NCBI GenBank assembly: GCA_012735465.1
Contig: JAAYHJ010000016.1
Coordinates: 16,648 to 80,647, forward strand
DNA: 64,000 bases
Direction of reading: 5' to 3'
Source of the DNA: Clostridiaceae bacterium
GTDB lineage: Bacteria > Bacillota > Clostridia > SK-Y3
Under the pieces are notes generated by a model, which saw only the letters and a program-made list of their open reading frames with translations, was not told the origin of the DNA and ran no database searches. Made by a program: the position numbers and the translations under genes. Each line of letters begins with the position of its first letter. The first letter of the stretch is position 1. Below are positions 46,011 to 54,422 of this stretch, in pieces.

Positions 46011-47270
46011 TTAATGGAATAACTCTTTTGCAAAATTATATAAGCTATCCTTCCAAACTGTAAAATCGTGGCCGCCTGCAAGTTCATAATAAAAGTGCTT
46101 TGTTCCATTTTTCTCTAATACTAAATGATATCTTTTAGGCTCATCCCTAACAACTGTATCATTTAAACCTGCAGAAATCATAACCACTGTTTTACCGTTA
46201 TATTCTTCCGGTAGTTTAAATGTGTCTTCGGTAAATAAACCTTTTTCCGTTACTCCTAAATTTGTATATTCCAAGATACCAAATGCAGGTGTAAATGCTC
46301 CTATGTATCCAAATGTTTCCGGCATTGTGAAACCGACATGCAGTGATACACGTCCTCCCATTGAAAGACCTGCAATAGCAGTATTTTCGCGACCTTCGGC
46401 AACGGAATAATTTGCTTTTATATAGGGCATGAGATCGTTTTTAAGATCATTTATAAAGTTGTCAAATTCTTGAAAATGAGCAAGTGAAAACATATCTGTG
46501 GTTGGAACAGAATCATCCGCTCGTGCTCTACAATTTGGAATAACAACAATCATTTCATCCGTTCTACCTGCAGCAACTAAATTACCAATAATATACTGTG
46601 GATTACCTGACAACCATTCTCTATGATCCCCACCTATGCCATGAAGTAGATATAGCACGGGATATTTTTTGGTTTCATCATATCCAGGTGGCAGAATTAC
46701 GTTTGCTTTTCTCATTCTGCCTGTAGTGTTTGAATAATATTGTATCTCCACAATATTTCCGTAAGAAACCCCACTCTTTGCAACATCGAATCCTGCTGGC
46801 GGCGTCTCATAAGATATTATTCTTTCCGGCTCGGTACCTAATTCAAATACTTCTGACAATGGCCGCATTGTAGTATCGGATAAAGATTCACCTTCCCATA
46901 CAAATGCCCTTACAACATGGTCAGTAACATCTTCCGGAAGTCTAAACCCTGCAATCATATTTTCTGTAGCACCCACAGGAATTGACTTTGAAATATATGA
47001 TACATTCTTCATCTCATTATTTCCATCAAATAGTGCCACAATTGCTAAAGCAGGAACGCTCTTCTCACTCCTATTTGTCACACTTACTGTGACGTCTAGT
47101 ATTTCGTCTGGATGAAGGTAATTCATATTTGATGTAACAGAAATGTCCATATCATAGTCTTCAGTTGTACCTTCACCTGCCAATACCGCTACTGCAGTTG
47201 TACTAAGCAGCAGACTAATAATCATCGAGGTAACGATAATCATTAAAATGATTCTGTTTTGTTTTGTCAT
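46011..47270 (-). CDS. Secreted esterase (esterase D/CE1-like alpha/beta hydrolase) with N-terminal ~105-aa beta-sandwich-like module
   Basis: 419 aa with a signal peptide, a module (VSVTNRSEKSVPALAIVALFDG...RAFVWEGE), then LYLLHGIGGDHREW and the nucleophile elbow GLSMGG. Confidence 0.8.
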   Translation of the reverse strand: MTKQNRIILMIIVTSMIISLLLSTTAVAVLAGEGTTEDYDMDISVTSNMNYLHPDEILDVTVSVTNRSEKSVPALAIVALFDGNNEMKNVSYISKSIPVGATENMIAGFRLPEDVTDHVVRAFVWEGESLSDTTMRPLSEVFELGTEPERIISYETPPAGFDVAKSGVSYGNIVEIQYYSNTTGRMRKANVILPPGYDETKKYPVLYLLHGIGGDHREWLSGNPQYIIGNLVAAGRTDEMIVVIPNCRARADDSVPTTDMFSLAHFQEFDNFINDLKNDLMPYIKANYSVAEGRENTAIAGLSMGGRVSLHVGFTMPETFGYIGAFTPAFGILEYTNLGVTEKGLFTEDTFKLPEEYNGKTVVMISAGLNDTVVRDEPKRYHLVLEKNGTKHFYYELAGGHDFTVWKDSLYNFAKELFH

Positions 47271-47960
47271 TTTTCATCCCCCGTTAAATTTTTCTTTTAT
47301 AGATACACATTTACCTTTTCTTACATAATTTATTATATCATGAAAAATATGAAATTCAACGGGATATTTTTTGTTCTTATCATATTCCACCGGTGGTGTC
47401 TAATAAGATATTATTCCCTTTTCGGCTCGGGACTTAATTCAAATACGTCTGACAATGGATACATTGTAGTATTTTCTAAACTTTTCCCTTCCCATACAAA
47501 TACTCTCAAAACATGGTCAGTAACATCTTCCGGAAGTCTAAGACCTGCATTCAACTGTTCTGTGACACCCACGTCAATTGTTTTTGACATATATGCAAGA
47601 CCCATCATCTTATTGTCCCTGTCAAATAGCGCCACAATTGCCATAGCATGAACGCTTCTTCCACTCCTATTGGTCACACTTACAAAAACAAAAATAATCT
47701 CGCCTGCCTTAAGGTAATTCATAGTTGTTTCAACAGAAATATCCATGTCAAAAAACTCCTGTTGCCGTTTCCGCCGCCGATACCCCTACGACCGTTGTAC
47801 TAAACAACAGGCTAATAATTATCGAAGTAACGATAATCATTGAAATTATTCTGTTTTGTCTTGTCATTTTTAATCTCCTGTTAAATTTTTCTCTTAGATA
47901 CAAATTTTGCCCCTTACAGAATTTATTATATCATGTAAAATATGAAAACCAAATGAACAA
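46811..47960. repeat. Tandem ~560-595-bp segmental duplication (two diverged copies: 46811-47370 and 47405-47960)
   Basis: Both copies contain the promoter/5'UTR (ttattatatcatg[at]aaaatatgaaa), RBS, signal peptide and module-coding sequence. Identity is roughly three quarters by eye. Confidence 0.8.
47411..47867 (-). pseudogene. Decayed duplicate of the 5' third of the esterase gene (signal peptide plus module), interrupted by a stop
   Basis: From ATG 47867 the translation is MTRQNRIISMIIVTSIIISLLFSTTVVGVSAAETATGVF*. A 111-aa ORF then resumes (MDISVETTMNYL...VFVWEGKSL...), and there is no esterase domain. Confidence 0.75.
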
Positions 47961-49503: not shown

Positions 49504-50178
49504 TTATGCAACAAGAAGATACTTTTTCTTCTGTTTAGCAGTTAGAGTTAATCCAGCTACTTGAGCAGGTGTTAAACCATTAAGAGATGAATGGGGTCTA
49601 ACAAAGTTATAAAAGAATAAGAACATGCTGATTAGGTTATTTGCTGATTCAAAAGAGTTGAAACCTTGCTTTGTCTTATACCAAGCTTTAAATTGATGAT
49701 GGAAAGACTCTATAAGATTGTTAGAAATATCATCTTTAAAGCTTTCAACACGAATGTGTTTAATGTTATTGCCTAAAACAGTTTTAACAGGAACCTTATA
49801 AGCACTGTAACGGTCACTGACAATAGCAACAGGTTGGCCTAAGCTTTTAACAGAATTAAGTAAAGAAAAAACCTGCTCTGAATCTCTATGTGGTGAAAGA
49901 TGAAATCCTAAGACAAAGCGAGTCTCTGAGTCCATAATGAACCATATATAATATTTTTTACCAGAGATTTTTACAGTAGTTTCATCAGCGTGCCATTCAT
50001 CAGAATCAAAATTTAACATTGTCATAAGTTCCAATACAATATTATTAAAATAAGGAGCAAATTGGTGCTTACACTTATGGCAAAGATATTTTTGGAAACC
50101 ATCTTTATCTTTGCCATAGCGATAAAAAGAATGCTCATTATTGCATTTTGGACATTTAACTGGTACAATTTTTTGCAT
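49504..50178 (-). CDS. IS6-family DDE transposase with N-terminal zinc-finger
   Basis: 224 aa: CPKCNN...CHKCKHQF, then WHADETTVKISGKKYYIWFIMD, IVSDRYSAY and NNLIESFHHQFKAWYKTKQGFNSFESA. Compare IS26 HMDETYVKVNGRWAYLYRAVD / NTDKAPAY / NNVIECDHGKLKR. Confidence 0.85.
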   Translation of the reverse strand: MQKIVPVKCPKCNNEHSFYRYGKDKDGFQKYLCHKCKHQFAPYFNNIVLELMTMLNFDSDEWHADETTVKISGKKYYIWFIMDSETRFVLGFHLSPHRDSEQVFSLLNSVKSLGQPVAIVSDRYSAYKVPVKTVLGNNIKHIRVESFKDDISNNLIESFHHQFKAWYKTKQGFNSFESANNLISMFLFFYNFVRPHSSLNGLTPAQVAGLTLTAKQKKKYLLVA

Positions 50179-50807: not shown

Positions 50808-53800
50808 ATGAAAAAGCTTTTTAAAAAAATCATCAGCTCAATTTTATTATTATCCATATTATTCACTTTCATTGTCCCCGGTACTTTTGTTGCAGCGGAA
50901 GAAAATCCTTTGCCATCTTTACCACCGGATGAGGACGGATCCAACTTGTGGCTGCGTTATGTCAGGGTTAGCGATGCAGACAAGTTGGACGAGTACCGAA
51001 GGGTTGTTACCAATATAGTAGTGCCGAATCCTTCATCTTCAGCCACCTTAACCATTATACGTGATGAACTAAACATGGGATTGGACGGCCTGTTGGACCT
51101 GGACATACCTTATGTTGAAACCGATACAATCAGTGAAGGTTCGGTAATAGTGGGTACTCCTGCCAGCTCCTCTATTATTAGAAGCCTGAACCTGGAAGAT
51201 ACGCTTGATTCATTAGGGGACGAAGGCTATATTATTAAATCCGTCACTATCGACGGGAAGAAGGTTACCGTAATTGCTTCCAAGGGCGAATTTGGTGCTC
51301 TCTATGGAACCTTTGGTTTCCTAAGGCTTCTTCAAACCCAAAAGTCCATAACCAACCTGGACATCTCCGACAAACCTAAAGTTAAAATTCGGAAATTGGA
51401 TCACTGGGAAACCGAACGCAATTATGCCGGCGGTAATTTTATAAACTGGAACTCGCTGCCGGATACCCTCCTGCCCCGATACACCACCTTTGCACGGGCT
51501 TGTGCTTCAGTAGGAATCAATGCTTTCGTATTTAATAATGTCAATGCATCTGCCACATATTTGACCGCTGAGTATATAGCAAAAGAAAAGGCATTGGCCG
51601 ACTTATTCAGACCCTATGGAATTAAAGTTTACTTATCCGTGCCATTCAATGCACCACGCAGTATAGCAACACCTTCCTATCCCGGTGTATCCAGCAGCCC
51701 CAGATTAAACACTGCCGACCCGCTGGACCCACAGGTTATTAAATGGTGGAACGATATGGTTGACGCCATTTATTCGCAAATACCCGACTTTGGAGGATTT
51801 TTGATTAAAGCCGGCTCAGAAGGTCAATCCGGACCCGGTGACTACGGTCGTACCCATGCCGATGGTGCAAACTGTCTGGCCAGGGCCTTGGCTCGGCATG
51901 GAGGTATTGCATTCTGGCGCTCCTTTGTTTACCGTGCCGATGTGGACCCCGACCGCCTGAAGAGGGCTTACCTGGAATTTAAACCCCTTGACGGACAATT
52001 TGACGATAATGTATTTGTCCAGACCAAATACGGTCCCCTGGATTTCATGCCGCGCGAGCCGTTCCATCCCTTGTTCGGGCAAATGCCGCAAACAAAACAA
52101 TGTATTGAATTGCAAATAACCCAGGAATATACCGGCCAAAGCACTCACCTTACCTACCTGGCACCGATTTGGGAAGAAATATTAAAATCAGATACCTACG
52201 TCGATGGTGCCGGTTCCTATGTGGGAAAGGTCATTGACGGAACACTTCACGGACATACTGATATGACAAGTATGACCGGTGTTTCAAATATCGGTTCTGC
52301 AACCAACTTAACTGGTCATCCCTTCGGTCAGGCTAACTGGTTTGCTTTCGGACGCATGGCCTGGGACTGGACACTTACATCCAAATCAATTGCTGACGAT
52401 TGGATCCGCATGACATGGAGCAACGACCCCTACGTGGTTGATACGATTAAGCGCATGATGATGGGTTCCCGAGAGGCCTTGGTCAATTATCAGGAATCCC
52501 TAGGTCTTGTTCATCAGCAACGGCAAAGCGACCATTACGGTCCCGGACCCAGCGAAATCTCCACCGGCTCCAACCCGGACTGGTACGCAAGATGGTATAG
52601 CAGGGCCGACTCGGTTGGTCTTGGTTACGACCGTTCCAGTAACGGCAGTAATTTTGCAAGCCTGTACGCGCCGGAACTTGCCACCATGTTTAACAGCATG
52701 GAAACCTGTCCGGAAAACCTGCTGGCTTTGTTCTATCATGTACCCTTCACCTATACCATGAAATCAGGCCGAACTTTCTGGGACGAGTTATGCCGCAATT
52801 ACCAAATAGGTGTGCACTATGTAACCAACATGCGCGCACAATGGGATTCCCTCCAGCCATATATAGATAATGCTCGTTTTACCGATGTTAAAAACCGATT
52901 AGCCAACCATGAAAGAGATGCCGGAATATGGCGCGATACTTGTATCAGTTACTACGGCAGTTGGAGCCAAATGCCGGTACCCCCTGATCCTTTACAGCTG
53001 CGCAACCTTATGATAGACGGAAACCAGATAGATGGGTTTGAACCCGGTGTTTATGATTATACCGTAGGAGGCTTAACCGGCGATAAAATACCGCAAGTCA
53101 GCGCCGTTCCCAATGATCCCAATGCCACGGTAACCATTACCCAGGCAACAGGAATACCCGGGCAGGCAGTAGTAAAAGTATACATGGAAGAACCATTTTT
53201 CTACGGTCCGGAATTCATATTAAAGGATTATCCCAATACCATGCTGGCAGTCTACACTATAAACTTCACCGATGAAGTAATTCCTGAAAATTTTGTGGTG
53301 GCTATTGAAGCAGAAACTGCAGCGGAAAACACCGAAAATGCTTATGTACGTGGTGTTGCCAACGGCACTTATACCTGGTCCCTTGTTGACGGACAGACGA
53401 CAAAAGCCATGCAGTTCTTACCTGACGACGGCACCTTGGTTACATCAGGTACTGATACGGACAGCCTGAATGCCGGTTCAAGTCTTAATTATAAGATCAA
53501 TTTCCCAACCGGAGGAACATATTACGTTTGGCTGCTTTGCAAGAGCCGTAATTACAACACGGACTCCATTCACGTTGGATTGGATAAAGAGTATAAATTC
53601 ACCGCCAACGGTATCCAGGGTAAAAGCAACGGCCAGTGGCGATGGGTTAATATAAGCGATGGCAGTGATGGCATAATACTCGGTGCATCTACTTTAGAAA
53701 TCAGCGCCGGCGTACATGAACTTAACTTCTGGGGAAGAGAATCAGGACTTGCAATAGACAGGATATACTTAACCACTGACGGTTCAATCTCAGAACCTAC

Positions 53801-54422
53801 CTGGCCCATAGCGGTAACAGGAATAACGCTTGATAAGAGCACACTGACCCTGAAGAAGGGTTCAAGCGAAACCCTGACCGCAACCGTAACCCCTGCAGAT
53901 GCAACGAACAAGAGAGTAAAATTTACATCGGACAATACGGAAGTGGCTACCGTAAGCGGATTATTTTATGATGCCGCAACAGGAAAGACCAGCGTAACCG
54001 TAAATGCAATAGCTCCGGGAACAGCAACAATAACTGCTACTGCGGTGGACGGTAGTAACAAAACAGCAATATGTAATGTGATAGTGGAAGATGAGGAAGA
54101 ATACGGGTACACTGTTTCGACAGAATTCAACATGGATAAACTGGTGGCAAACAAGATAGTTAATGCAGAGGTTACAGCTACAAACGCAAACAGCAGTATA
54201 ACAGATGTTTTGGTCATCGTTGCATTGTACGAGGGAGACAGAATGATTAATGTTTCCTACATATCAAAGAATATACCTGTAGGAGCTTCCGAAAAACTCA
54301 CAGCAGGATTCATGTTGCCCCCAGTAATAACTGATCAACATAAATTAAAGGTATTTGTCTGGGATGGAGAAACGATAGGTTCATCAAACGGCATTCCATT
54401 ATCCGAAATACGCGAATTATAA
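50808..54422 (+). CDS. aguA: Secreted multi-domain GH67 alpha-glucuronidase (GH67 core, lectin/CBM-like jelly-roll, Big_2, C-terminal ~105-aa module)
   Basis: Signal peptide. GH67 blocks LWLRY, GALYGTFGFLRLLQ, VGINAFVFNNVN, TADPLDPQVIKWW, IPDFGGFLIKAGSEG and ELQITQEYTGQ match G. stearothermophilus AguA as I recall it. Big_2 region ITLDKSTLTLKKGSSETLTATVTPADATNKRVKFTSDN. Confidence 0.88.
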   Translation: MKKLFKKIISSILLLSILFTFIVPGTFVAAEENPLPSLPPDEDGSNLWLRYVRVSDADKLDEYRRVVTNIVVPNPSSSATLTIIRDELNMGLDGLLDLDIPYVETDTISEGSVIVGTPASSSIIRSLNLEDTLDSLGDEGYIIKSVTIDGKKVTVIASKGEFGALYGTFGFLRLLQTQKSITNLDISDKPKVKIRKLDHWETERNYAGGNFINWNSLPDTLLPRYTTFARACASVGINAFVFNNVNASATYLTAEYIAKEKALADLFRPYGIKVYLSVPFNAPRSIATPSYPGVSSSPRLNTADPLDPQVIKWWNDMVDAIYSQIPDFGGFLIKAGSEGQSGPGDYGRTHADGANCLARALARHGGIAFWRSFVYRADVDPDRLKRAYLEFKPLDGQFDDNVFVQTKYGPLDFMPREPFHPLFGQMPQTKQCIELQITQEYTGQSTHLTYLAPIWEEILKSDTYVDGAGSYVGKVIDGTLHGHTDMTSMTGVSNIGSATNLTGHPFGQANWFAFGRMAWDWTLTSKSIADDWIRMTWSNDPYVVDTIKRMMMGSREALVNYQESLGLVHQQRQSDHYGPGPSEISTGSNPDWYARWYSRADSVGLGYDRSSNGSNFASLYAPELATMFNSMETCPENLLALFYHVPFTYTMKSGRTFWDELCRNYQIGVHYVTNMRAQWDSLQPYIDNARFTDVKNRLANHERDAGIWRDTCISYYGSWSQMPVPPDPLQLRNLMIDGNQIDGFEPGVYDYTVGGLTGDKIPQVSAVPNDPNATVTITQATGIPGQAVVKVYMEEPFFYGPEFILKDYPNTMLAVYTINFTDEVIPENFVVAIEAETAAENTENAYVRGVANGTYTWSLVDGQTTKAMQFLPDDGTLVTSGTDTDSLNAGSSLNYKINFPTGGTYYVWLLCKSRNYNTDSIHVGLDKEYKFTANGIQGKSNGQWRWVNISDGSDGIILGASTLEISAGVHELNFWGRESGLAIDRIYLTTDGSISEPTWPIAVTGITLDKSTLTLKKGSSETLTATVTPADATNKRVKFTSDNTEVATVSGLFYDAATGKTSVTVNAIAPGTATITATAVDGSNKTAICNVIVEDEEEYGYTVSTEFNMDKLVANKIVNAEVTATNANSSITDVLVIVALYEGDRMINVSYISKNIPVGASEKLTAGFMLPPVITDQHKLKVFVWDGETIGSSNGIPLSEIREL

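Follow-up and report, generated by a model that had tools for sequence, protein, structure and literature searches.

We describe here a protein module of about 105 amino acids (aa) found in a 64,000-nucleotide (nt) stretch of the genome of a Clostridiaceae bacterium (assembly GCA_012735465.1, contig JAAYHJ010000016.1, positions 16,648 to 80,647 of the forward strand; hereafter the window), where it forms the C-terminus of a secreted alpha-glucuronidase of glycoside hydrolase (GH) family 67. The module exists as a unit of its own, folds confidently in structure prediction, is mobile, occurs once per protein and nearly always at a protein end, has reached a very high copy number in this genome, and in paralogous proteins alternates with SLH repeats or with cohesin-dockerin. 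It is a divergent member of the Ig-like E-set world, distantly CARDB/FxLYD-like, and belongs to no curated Pfam or NCBIfam family. As to its function, we tentatively favour, at a likelihood that falls somewhat short of even, a new glycan-targeting module resembling a carbohydrate-binding module (CBM), a candidate whose binding activity and glycan ligand are both presumed.

The genome that holds the window amounts to 2.32 Mb in 95 contigs and is 98.6% complete, the window being part of contig C94. Searches by tblastn and with a hidden Markov model (HMM) of the module returned 44 matches, comprising a few decayed fragments and 41 carrier open reading frames (ORFs), an approximate number that may be somewhat low since some carriers are cut by contig ends at which near-identical copies lie. 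Exactly one copy is present in each of the 41 carriers, and a Sec-type signal peptide is found in every carrier whose N-terminus is present. The linkers ahead of the module are short and acidic, and in about 33 carriers only 0–9 residues separate its end from the stop codon; it is N-terminal or internal in five of the 41, namely an esterase, two GH127 proteins, one GH43 protein and one protein without a Pfam match. A recognised plant-polysaccharide catalytic domain is present in about 24 carriers, and the Pfam tally over all carriers was GH43 (eight), GH127 (four), GH10 and GH3 (three each), GH51 and GH95 (two each), GH67 and the esterase; the other carriers include an M14 peptidase and a Calx-beta/CARDB protein of 2516 aa, and about a dozen have no Pfam match or nothing beyond LamG or Ig-like domains. 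If signal peptides are called by a rough heuristic rule of our analysis, 36 proteins of 900 aa or more are predicted to have one, and 23 of these carry the module, as do 17 of the 24 that reach 1200 aa. It looks as if this Clostridia lineage uses the module as a general terminal tag of secreted plant-cell-wall enzymes. A reading of the window from its sequence alone (the sequence-only reading) had taken the module as common to two xylan side-chain enzymes; with 41 secreted carriers ranging from GH43 enzymes to an M14 peptidase, this view was too narrow. As the carriers extend beyond xylan side-chain enzymes, both here and in metagenomes (GH48, GH9, PL1), a xylan-side-chain ligand is not indicated.

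Within the window, the module occurs three times, at the C-terminus of the GH67 protein, at the N-terminus of the esterase and in a short ORF (Table 1), and for all three the sequence-only reading had the positions right, the esterase lying on the minus strand. Against an HMM built from 40 genomic copies, the GH67 copy scored an E-value of 4.4e-41 and the esterase copy 4.0e-44, and end-to-end BLASTP of the GH67 copy with esterase aa 38-144 gave 44% identity over 108 aa (E 1e-26). The third copy is 40% identical to the GH67 copy (BLASTP, E 1e-24) and 66% identical to the esterase copy; judged from these alignments, the similarity among the three is far beyond chance. The GH67 carrier is built, in order, from a signal peptide, GH67 N/M/C (aa 47-725; Glyco_hydro_67M 7e-125, 67C 6e-80, 67N 2e-25), a GH115_C-like beta-sandwich (830-992; E 9e-09), Big_2 (1002-1087; E 7e-18) and the module (1098-1204), which no Pfam family covers in the Pfam search. 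PF00756, the family of the esterase domain, is an alpha/beta-hydrolase family that includes CE1-type esterases. The earlier description of the module as mobile, N-terminal in the esterase and C-terminal in the GH67 protein, was thus borne out.

The third copy had been called decayed, and the surrounding sequence agrees: it lies in a duplicate of the esterase 5' end that is 79% identical at the nucleotide level to window positions 46798-47312 (minus strand) across 519 nt (blastn) and carries two frameshifts. The duplicated parts are the esterase promoter region, ribosome-binding site, signal peptide, module and start of the linker. The first frameshift separates the frame of the remnant signal peptide (ATG near 47865) from that of the module ORF, and the second, together with a stop, cuts the reading frame off 3' of the module; in three-frame translation, one frame reads MTRQNRIISMIIVTS...AAETATGVF and a stop, and the module follows in the neighbouring one. 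Together with three decayed fragments elsewhere in the genome, which contain stops or truncations, this pseudogene indicates that module copies are still being gained and lost.

The distribution of the module relative to the other attachment devices of the genome is exclusive. SLH gave 57 matches in 26 ORFs, none of which carries the module, and none of the six dockerin proteins carries it; the SLH proteins are of the Flg_new, Big_2, fn3 and GH18 types and include no plant carbohydrate-active enzymes (CAZymes). No sortase was found in the genome, and besides the six dockerins there are four cohesins, one of them on a cohesin-SLHx3 anchor protein. Two pairs of paralogues differ in just this respect. 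In the first, two GH3 proteins of 1700 and 1699 aa align collinearly at 42% identity for about 1540 aa, and the C-terminal end is cohesin plus dockerin in one and the module in the other; in the second, encoded in an operon on contig C95, a 370-aa protein with a module end is 52% identical over 250 aa to a 793-aa protein with an SLHx3 end. The exclusivity with SLH and dockerin, combined with these swaps, indicates that the module takes the place in the protein where a device for targeting or attachment would stand; CBM-like targeting and cell-surface retention are the two leading functional readings.

In the second of these, which we consider unlikely, the module would be a dedicated envelope anchor that binds non-covalently to the cell's own secondary cell-wall polymer, peptidoglycan or S-layer lattice, not to plant polysaccharide, and so keeps about 40 exo-enzymes on the surface. 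The lack of a sortase speaks for it, as do the mutual exclusion of module and SLH, the absence of SLH from all plant CAZymes of the genome, the peptidase and non-catalytic proteins among the carriers, and the Ig-like stalk domains (Big_2, Big_4, FIVAR) that commonly stand ahead of the module. The swaps against SLHx3 and against cohesin-dockerin, in a genome that has a cohesin-SLH anchor, also suit an anchor; however, a CBM on free enzymes where cellulosomal paralogues have a dockerin is a known pattern, so the swaps do not discriminate between the two.

Evidence from outside this genome bears on the same choice. Searched with the module profile, a set of 1.84 billion cluster representatives gave 888 matches at E<=1e-3, of which 259 reached E<=1e-10 and 59 reached E<=1e-30. 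Among 133 non-self proteins in the best 150 representatives, the module was at the extreme C-terminus in 96, N-terminal behind a signal peptide in 12 and internal in 11. The sequence-only reading had proposed a survey of the catalytic domains that accompany the module, and this survey showed GH43, GH127, PL1, GH48, GH9 and GDSL esterases in relatives and metagenomes; 89 Pfam partner families, CBM96 and fn3 among them, were found in 57 representatives. The copy of a GH9 enzyme is 72% identical to that of the GH67 protein. A word-based homologue search with the GH67 module region returned three matches, and a contig search for one representative (P0038) returned one short metagenome contig with no informative context. 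Literature on novel Clostridia CBMs, CARDB in glycoside hydrolases, FxLYD and GH127-linked domains yielded no description of the module.

Genome by genome, the module is sparse. Nine genomes of the same family have 0–1 copy apiece, 29 of 399 evenly drawn Clostridia have a match with a maximum of four copies, and six of 400 genomes of the phylum have a match, each with a single copy (genomes G114 and G366 were left out of the scoring). The digester metagenome-assembled genome 'Clostridiaceae bacterium AS04akNAM_34' has 15 copies and Clostridium drakei SL1 has three, and one copy each was found in Acidaminobacter, Herbinix, Flavonifractor, several Paenibacillus, Priestia megaterium and Neobacillus. 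The domain order is LamG-aBig_2-Big_4-module-GH127 in Paenibacillus and C. drakei and LamG-aBig_2-Big_4-GH43-module in P. megaterium, and the internal order Big_4-module-GH127 is kept in Paenibacillus, C. drakei and this genome. In a tree of 200 copies, of low resolution because the module is too short for firm branching, the Bacilli are basal and the copies of this genome do not form one clade but interleave with metagenomic ones, which indicates an expansion common to unsampled close relatives; some metagenomic representatives are 74–77% identical to whole carriers of this genome. A metagenomic protein, P0072, consists of the module, an approximately 190-aa Pro/Thr linker and SLHx3, and P0073 (145 aa) and P0083 (138 aa) consist of a signal peptide and the module alone. 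P0072, as a wall-anchored protein that displays the module alone in the way surface adhesins display CBMs, points to an external ligand.

These data weigh on an envelope anchor from both sides. The extreme lineage-specific expansion (44 copies here) would fit an organism-specific ligand, and weak sequence links to S-layer-type proteins, described below, would fit as well. Against it, a module that was itself a wall anchor would be redundant beside SLHx3 in P0072, the Big_4-module-GH127 order is conserved internally from Paenibacillus to C. drakei and this genome, proteins made up of a signal peptide and the module alone exist, and Bacilli whose envelopes differ considerably (Priestia, Neobacillus, Paenibacillus) have single copies. 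The acidic character of the module likewise gives it no electrostatic affinity for anionic wall polymers.

Regarding its sequence and fold, the 40 genomic copies align across about 107 columns without large gaps, with the consensus ...VLVIVALYDxxNRMVNVSYISK...AGFxLPxDVTGHxVKVFVWDG...PLSxVVxL and the invariant residues I40, M49, G70, V87, W88 and G90. The polar positions N29, N51, K57, K/R84, D/E89 and S102 (numbering of the GH67 copy) are conserved among paralogues only 40–50% identical. The sequence-only reading had guessed a beta-sandwich, and an AlphaFold2 model of the GH67 copy, made with the 40-copy alignment, is indeed an all-beta sandwich of 6–7 strands (predicted local distance difference test score, pLDDT, 96.8; predicted template modelling score, pTM, 0.86). 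Foldseek against the PDB returned generic Ig-like matches only (E about 1e-3, query-normalised template modelling score, TM, <=0.68, identity 6–15%, root-mean-square deviation 3–8 A), the best being internal Ig-like domains of GH2 beta-galactosidases/beta-glucuronidases, C2, UNC119 and Spo0M. The GH2 internal domains, C2 and UNC119 share the beta-sandwich topology with the module, a generic fold resemblance and not family membership. Sequence searches of the PDB, whether started from one copy or from the profile, had no match under E 0.07; the lone full-length alignment was to the C-terminal domain of 8c8k, a 'cell surface protein' (E 0.98).

No Pfam or NCBIfam model matched the module significantly, which agrees with the earlier statement that it could not be placed in a named family; a match to a defined CBM, CARDB or Ig-like family of known function had been named as a result that would overturn the proposal of a new binding or anchoring module, and Pfam and NCBIfam models gave none. 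CARDB (PF07705) appeared below threshold in seven of the 40 copies (best E 0.0024; none at E<=1 for the GH67 copy), and since no copy reached the Pfam gathering score of 22.7 bits, we reject membership in this family. FxLYD (NCBIfam NF038353) matched weakly in 13 of the 40 copies (best E 6.7e-4; none for the GH67 copy) with nothing above the curated cut-off, and distant kinship, not membership, is suggested. Both families, which are Ig-like E-set domains of surface proteins in bacteria, share with the module its general size, its all-beta sandwich and weak sequence matches, and the (I/V)ALYD motif of the module recalls the motif that gives FxLYD its name; they differ in that no module copy matches either better than E about 1e-3 and the GH67 copy matches neither. 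We know of no established molecular function for CARDB or FxLYD, so membership would not explain the module. The weak links to S-layer-type proteins mentioned above are the NCBIfam PACE-CTERM model of a putative archaeal S-layer protein, found in five of the 40 copies, and the alignment to 8c8k. We regard the module as an autonomous, non-catalytic Ig-like beta-sandwich of an undescribed family; the comparison with CBMs covers Pfam models, and the module may already bear a CAZy CBM number.

The structural results also bring up a rather improbable alternative, in which the module is an inert Ig-like end-cap or spacer that stabilises, solubilises or protects the termini of large exo-enzymes, has no specific ligand, and spread by duplication and domain shuffling. 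Its nearest structures are non-binding Ig-like domains inside GH2 enzymes (E about 1e-3, TM 0.5–0.68), the majority of its conserved positions are hydrophobic and seem to have a structural role, and in the conserved internal order it lies directly against the GH127 catalytic domain; we also know of no ligand for many Ig-like, fn3 and Big domains of CAZymes, which counts for such a spacer. An extreme terminal position in about 80% of cases, however, is not expected of a spacer, which would have no cause to avoid SLH and dockerin proteins, to stand alone behind a signal peptide as in P0073 and P0083, or to be the sole domain displayed on an SLH protein as in P0072. The persistence of the conserved polar positions among divergent paralogues likewise argues against it.

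Several recognised terminal devices were considered and rejected. For type I dockerin (PF00404), there was no Pfam match, the model is all-beta, and other proteins than the carriers have the six true dockerins of this genome; for SLH (PF00395), whose repeats mostly come in threes, there was no Pfam match, and all 26 SLH ORFs are without the module. A sortase/LPXTG signal is not compatible with a genome lacking a sortase and with carriers that have no hydrophobic tail and end 0–9 aa past the module, and none of the best 150 database representatives has an LPXTG-like C-terminus. The C-terminal sorting domain of the type IX secretion system, a beta-sandwich that is always C-terminal and belongs to diderm hosts of the Bacteroidota type, was rejected with no Pfam/NCBIfam match, hosts in Bacillota, and N-terminal or internal copies in five of 41 proteins here and 23 of 133 elsewhere.

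The likeness to dockerin and SLH concerns use, not structure. Like a dockerin, the module is terminal and single, it is on a large share of secreted enzymes, and paralogues in this genome can have it in place of these devices; in contrast, it is an all-beta unit of about 105 aa that lacks the duplicated 22-residue Ca-binding loop-helix motif of dockerins as well as any SLH motif, and a search for a receptor (windowed BLAST, relaxed HMM) found none. A protein-protein docking module of an unrecognised display system, whose partner would be a surface receptor or the module itself in the manner of dockerin and cohesin, is in our view quite unlikely. It would account for the single, terminal occurrence in dozens of proteins per genome that exclude dockerin and SLH; proteins such as P0072 would be a natural surface receptor if modules self-associate, and strands beta3 and beta6, hydrophobic on both faces by column pattern, would fit an interface. 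Yet a scaffold bearing repeats of a candidate receptor domain did not emerge when the signal-peptide proteins without the module were compared by windowed all-versus-all BLAST, a relaxed HMM search detected nothing like the module, even weakly, in the SLH proteins of this genome, and single copies in many unrelated Bacillota would demand a receptor each time. The more specific proposal that the module is the docking half of a Bacillota enzyme-display system unrelated to cohesin-dockerin, in which about 40 enzymes would be held by module-module or receptor contacts with P0072-like proteins as receptor, is more doubtful still.

The nearest known counterpart is CBM37 of Ruminococcus albus, on which Xu et al. 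2004 and Ezer et al. 2008 are said to have reported. CBM37 is species-restricted with 51–102 copies per genome, is carried by many GH, carbohydrate esterase (CE) and polysaccharide lyase (PL) families and by non-catalytic proteins, occurs very rarely with dockerins, and, as experiments have demonstrated, binds numerous polysaccharides and fixes enzymes to the cell wall (genome survey PMC4081043). The module is alike in being about 100 aa, non-catalytic and usually C-terminal, in having dozens of copies in one genome (44 here) and essentially in one lineage, in its range of catalytic and non-catalytic carriers that very rarely or never have dockerins, and in standing where related bacteria have dockerins. 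It differs in never being tandem in this genome, whereas CBM37 often is, and in being known from sequence and predicted structure, whereas the binding of CBM37 is experimental. That the module is CBM37 itself was rejected: hhalign of the 40-copy profile with the C-terminal CBM37 of the R. albus 7 xylanase WP_013483737 (plasmid pRUMAL02) gave a probability of 1.8% and aligned only a 6-residue FVWD string, and tblastn with a consensus-like module copy found no match at E<=1 in the R. albus 7 plasmids. With a CBM37-like architecture and distribution and no homology, the module is a convergent, sequence-unrelated counterpart in these two respects.

For glycan targeting, the reading that we favour, the mechanism would be as follows. 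The carrier would be exported by Sec, after which the module, on its short acidic linker and often behind Ig-like stalk domains, would bind polysaccharide and hold the attached enzyme on the plant-fibre substrate; wall glycans of the bacterium itself might be bound as well, in the way known for CBM37 of R. albus. The module would thereby stand in for the dockerins, SLH repeats or classical CBMs of other fibre degraders. In favour of this reading are the predominance of plant-polysaccharide enzymes among the carriers, here and elsewhere, the layout of P0072 and the precedent of CBM37. Several observations weigh against this. The modules are acidic (median isoelectric point 4.6), and tandem copies, common for CBMs, are absent from the carriers of this genome. 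CBM6, CBM35, CBM4_9, F5/8-C or GH43_C2 are already present in many carriers, and about a third of carriers, one of them the M14 peptidase, have no recognised CAZyme catalytic domain. None of the Pfam CBM models matched the module, though CBM_6, CBM_35, CBM_4_9, CBM96 and GH43_C2 were found elsewhere in the carriers. Strand periodicity, read without coordinates, suggests that the conserved aromatics Y44, F86 and W88 would be buried under the C-terminal tail and would not form an exposed platform, and it shows both faces of strands beta3 and beta6 as hydrophobic. Finally, the sole match in the plasmid collection was a distant copy on a Monoglobus S8 peptidase.

Further loci of the genome touch on the module and on its alternatives, and their coordinates are collected in Table 1 with those of the window. 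The minimal cohesin-dockerin system consists of two GH3 enzymes with a terminal cohesin and dockerin on the same polypeptide, a small cohesin(+dockerin) protein and the cohesin-SLHx3 anchor. The three-gene operon on C95 encodes secreted paralogues with a common helical N-terminal domain of about 220 aa that has no Pfam match and bears the motif DPFQRF(L/M)IE(A/S)MSL; its products are the domain twice plus the module (606 aa), the domain plus the module (370 aa), and the domain plus about 350 aa and SLHx3 (793 aa), and they could form a surface complex joining module-tagged and SLH-anchored proteins. Near-identical module-gene fragments lie at contig ends as 272-aa ORFs on C17 and C29, and C14 and C55 have identical N-terminal stretches AKDYEVLTLGDTSAV... 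at their ends; the assembly probably breaks at these contig ends due to recent duplicates of carrier genes. A 370-aa protein on C1 combines BNR/Ycf48-like propeller repeats (ILTSxDGxxW), a Pro-rich linker and a divergent C-terminal module (HMM E 1e-14), with no obvious signal peptide at the called start. On C6, a protein of at least 939 aa whose gene runs off the contig end and adjoins an SLH protein gene has five repeats of Big_2 plus a domain of about 95 aa (VTISDVTVKVD...GKFRFEFTP...), and its C-terminal sandwich …QEVVVFQLM…YTVEVFVFNKFDS…APIILAE seems to be very distantly related to the module, at a level that the HMM does not detect. In the window, a 224-aa ORF that we take, by eye, to resemble an IS6-family transposase (N-terminal Cys-rich zinc finger plus DDE-type core) sits between the esterase/pseudogene/tRNA-Ser region and the GH67 gene, so that mobile DNA separates the two module-bearing genes.

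Table 1. Coordinates of module copies, their genes and related loci (window positions unless a contig or plasmid is named)
Feature	Position	Strand	Description	Basis
Module copy 1	54099..54419	+	C-terminal 107 aa (residues 1098-1204) of GH67 protein; translation EYGYTVSTEF...SEIREL, then stop codon 54420-54422	
GH67 carrier gene	50808..54422	+	secreted 1204-aa alpha-glucuronidase	ORF list, Pfam
Module copy 2	46836..47159	-	esterase residues ~38-145, right behind signal peptide; linker GTEPERIISYETPP next	BLASTP, HMM
Esterase carrier gene	46011..47270	-	secreted, 419 aa, N-terminal module; Pfam 'Putative esterase' PF00756 E 2.3e-25 at aa 180-411	
Module copy 3	47411..47746	-	111-aa ORF within the pseudogene	BLASTP
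Pseudogene	47392..47907	-	tandem partial duplicate of esterase 5' end	blastn, three-frame translation
Putative transposase ORF	49504..50178	-	224 aa, IS6-like	by eye
Decayed module fragment	C16:32347-32553		directly upstream of cohesin-SLH anchor gene	
Decayed module fragment	C29:4020-4178			
Decayed module fragment	C1:41907-42002			
Minimal cohesin-dockerin system	C93:54520-59625, C92:16511-20419, C84:4555-5589, C16:31193-32335		members given in the text	
Operon of secreted paralogues	C95:28431-33933	-	three genes	
Propeller-repeat protein	C1:50408-51520	-	370 aa	
Big_2-repeat protein	C6:53619-56438	-	at least 939 aa, off contig end	
Locus L072, Monoglobus pectinilyticus	plasmid NZ_OY725740 139310-145225		very large S8 serine peptidase, internal module copy, 39% identity over 66 aa, E 4e-7	

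In fibre-degrading Firmicutes, enzymes are mainly organised by cohesin-dockerin cellulosomes and by SLH or sortase anchoring, and to our knowledge the CBM37 type of organisation belongs to R. albus only. The module described here is a fourth, sequence-unrelated tag, which about two in three large secreted proteins of this 2.3-Mb genome carry and which current domain databases do not pick up, and it offers a clean case of convergent evolution with CBM37 in architecture and distribution. If its ligand is found, the module would become the founder of a new family of CBMs or anchors, hundreds of metagenomic CAZymes would be better annotated, given the 888 representatives that match its profile, and biomass conversion would gain a compact, confidently folded, acidic module for enzyme targeting.

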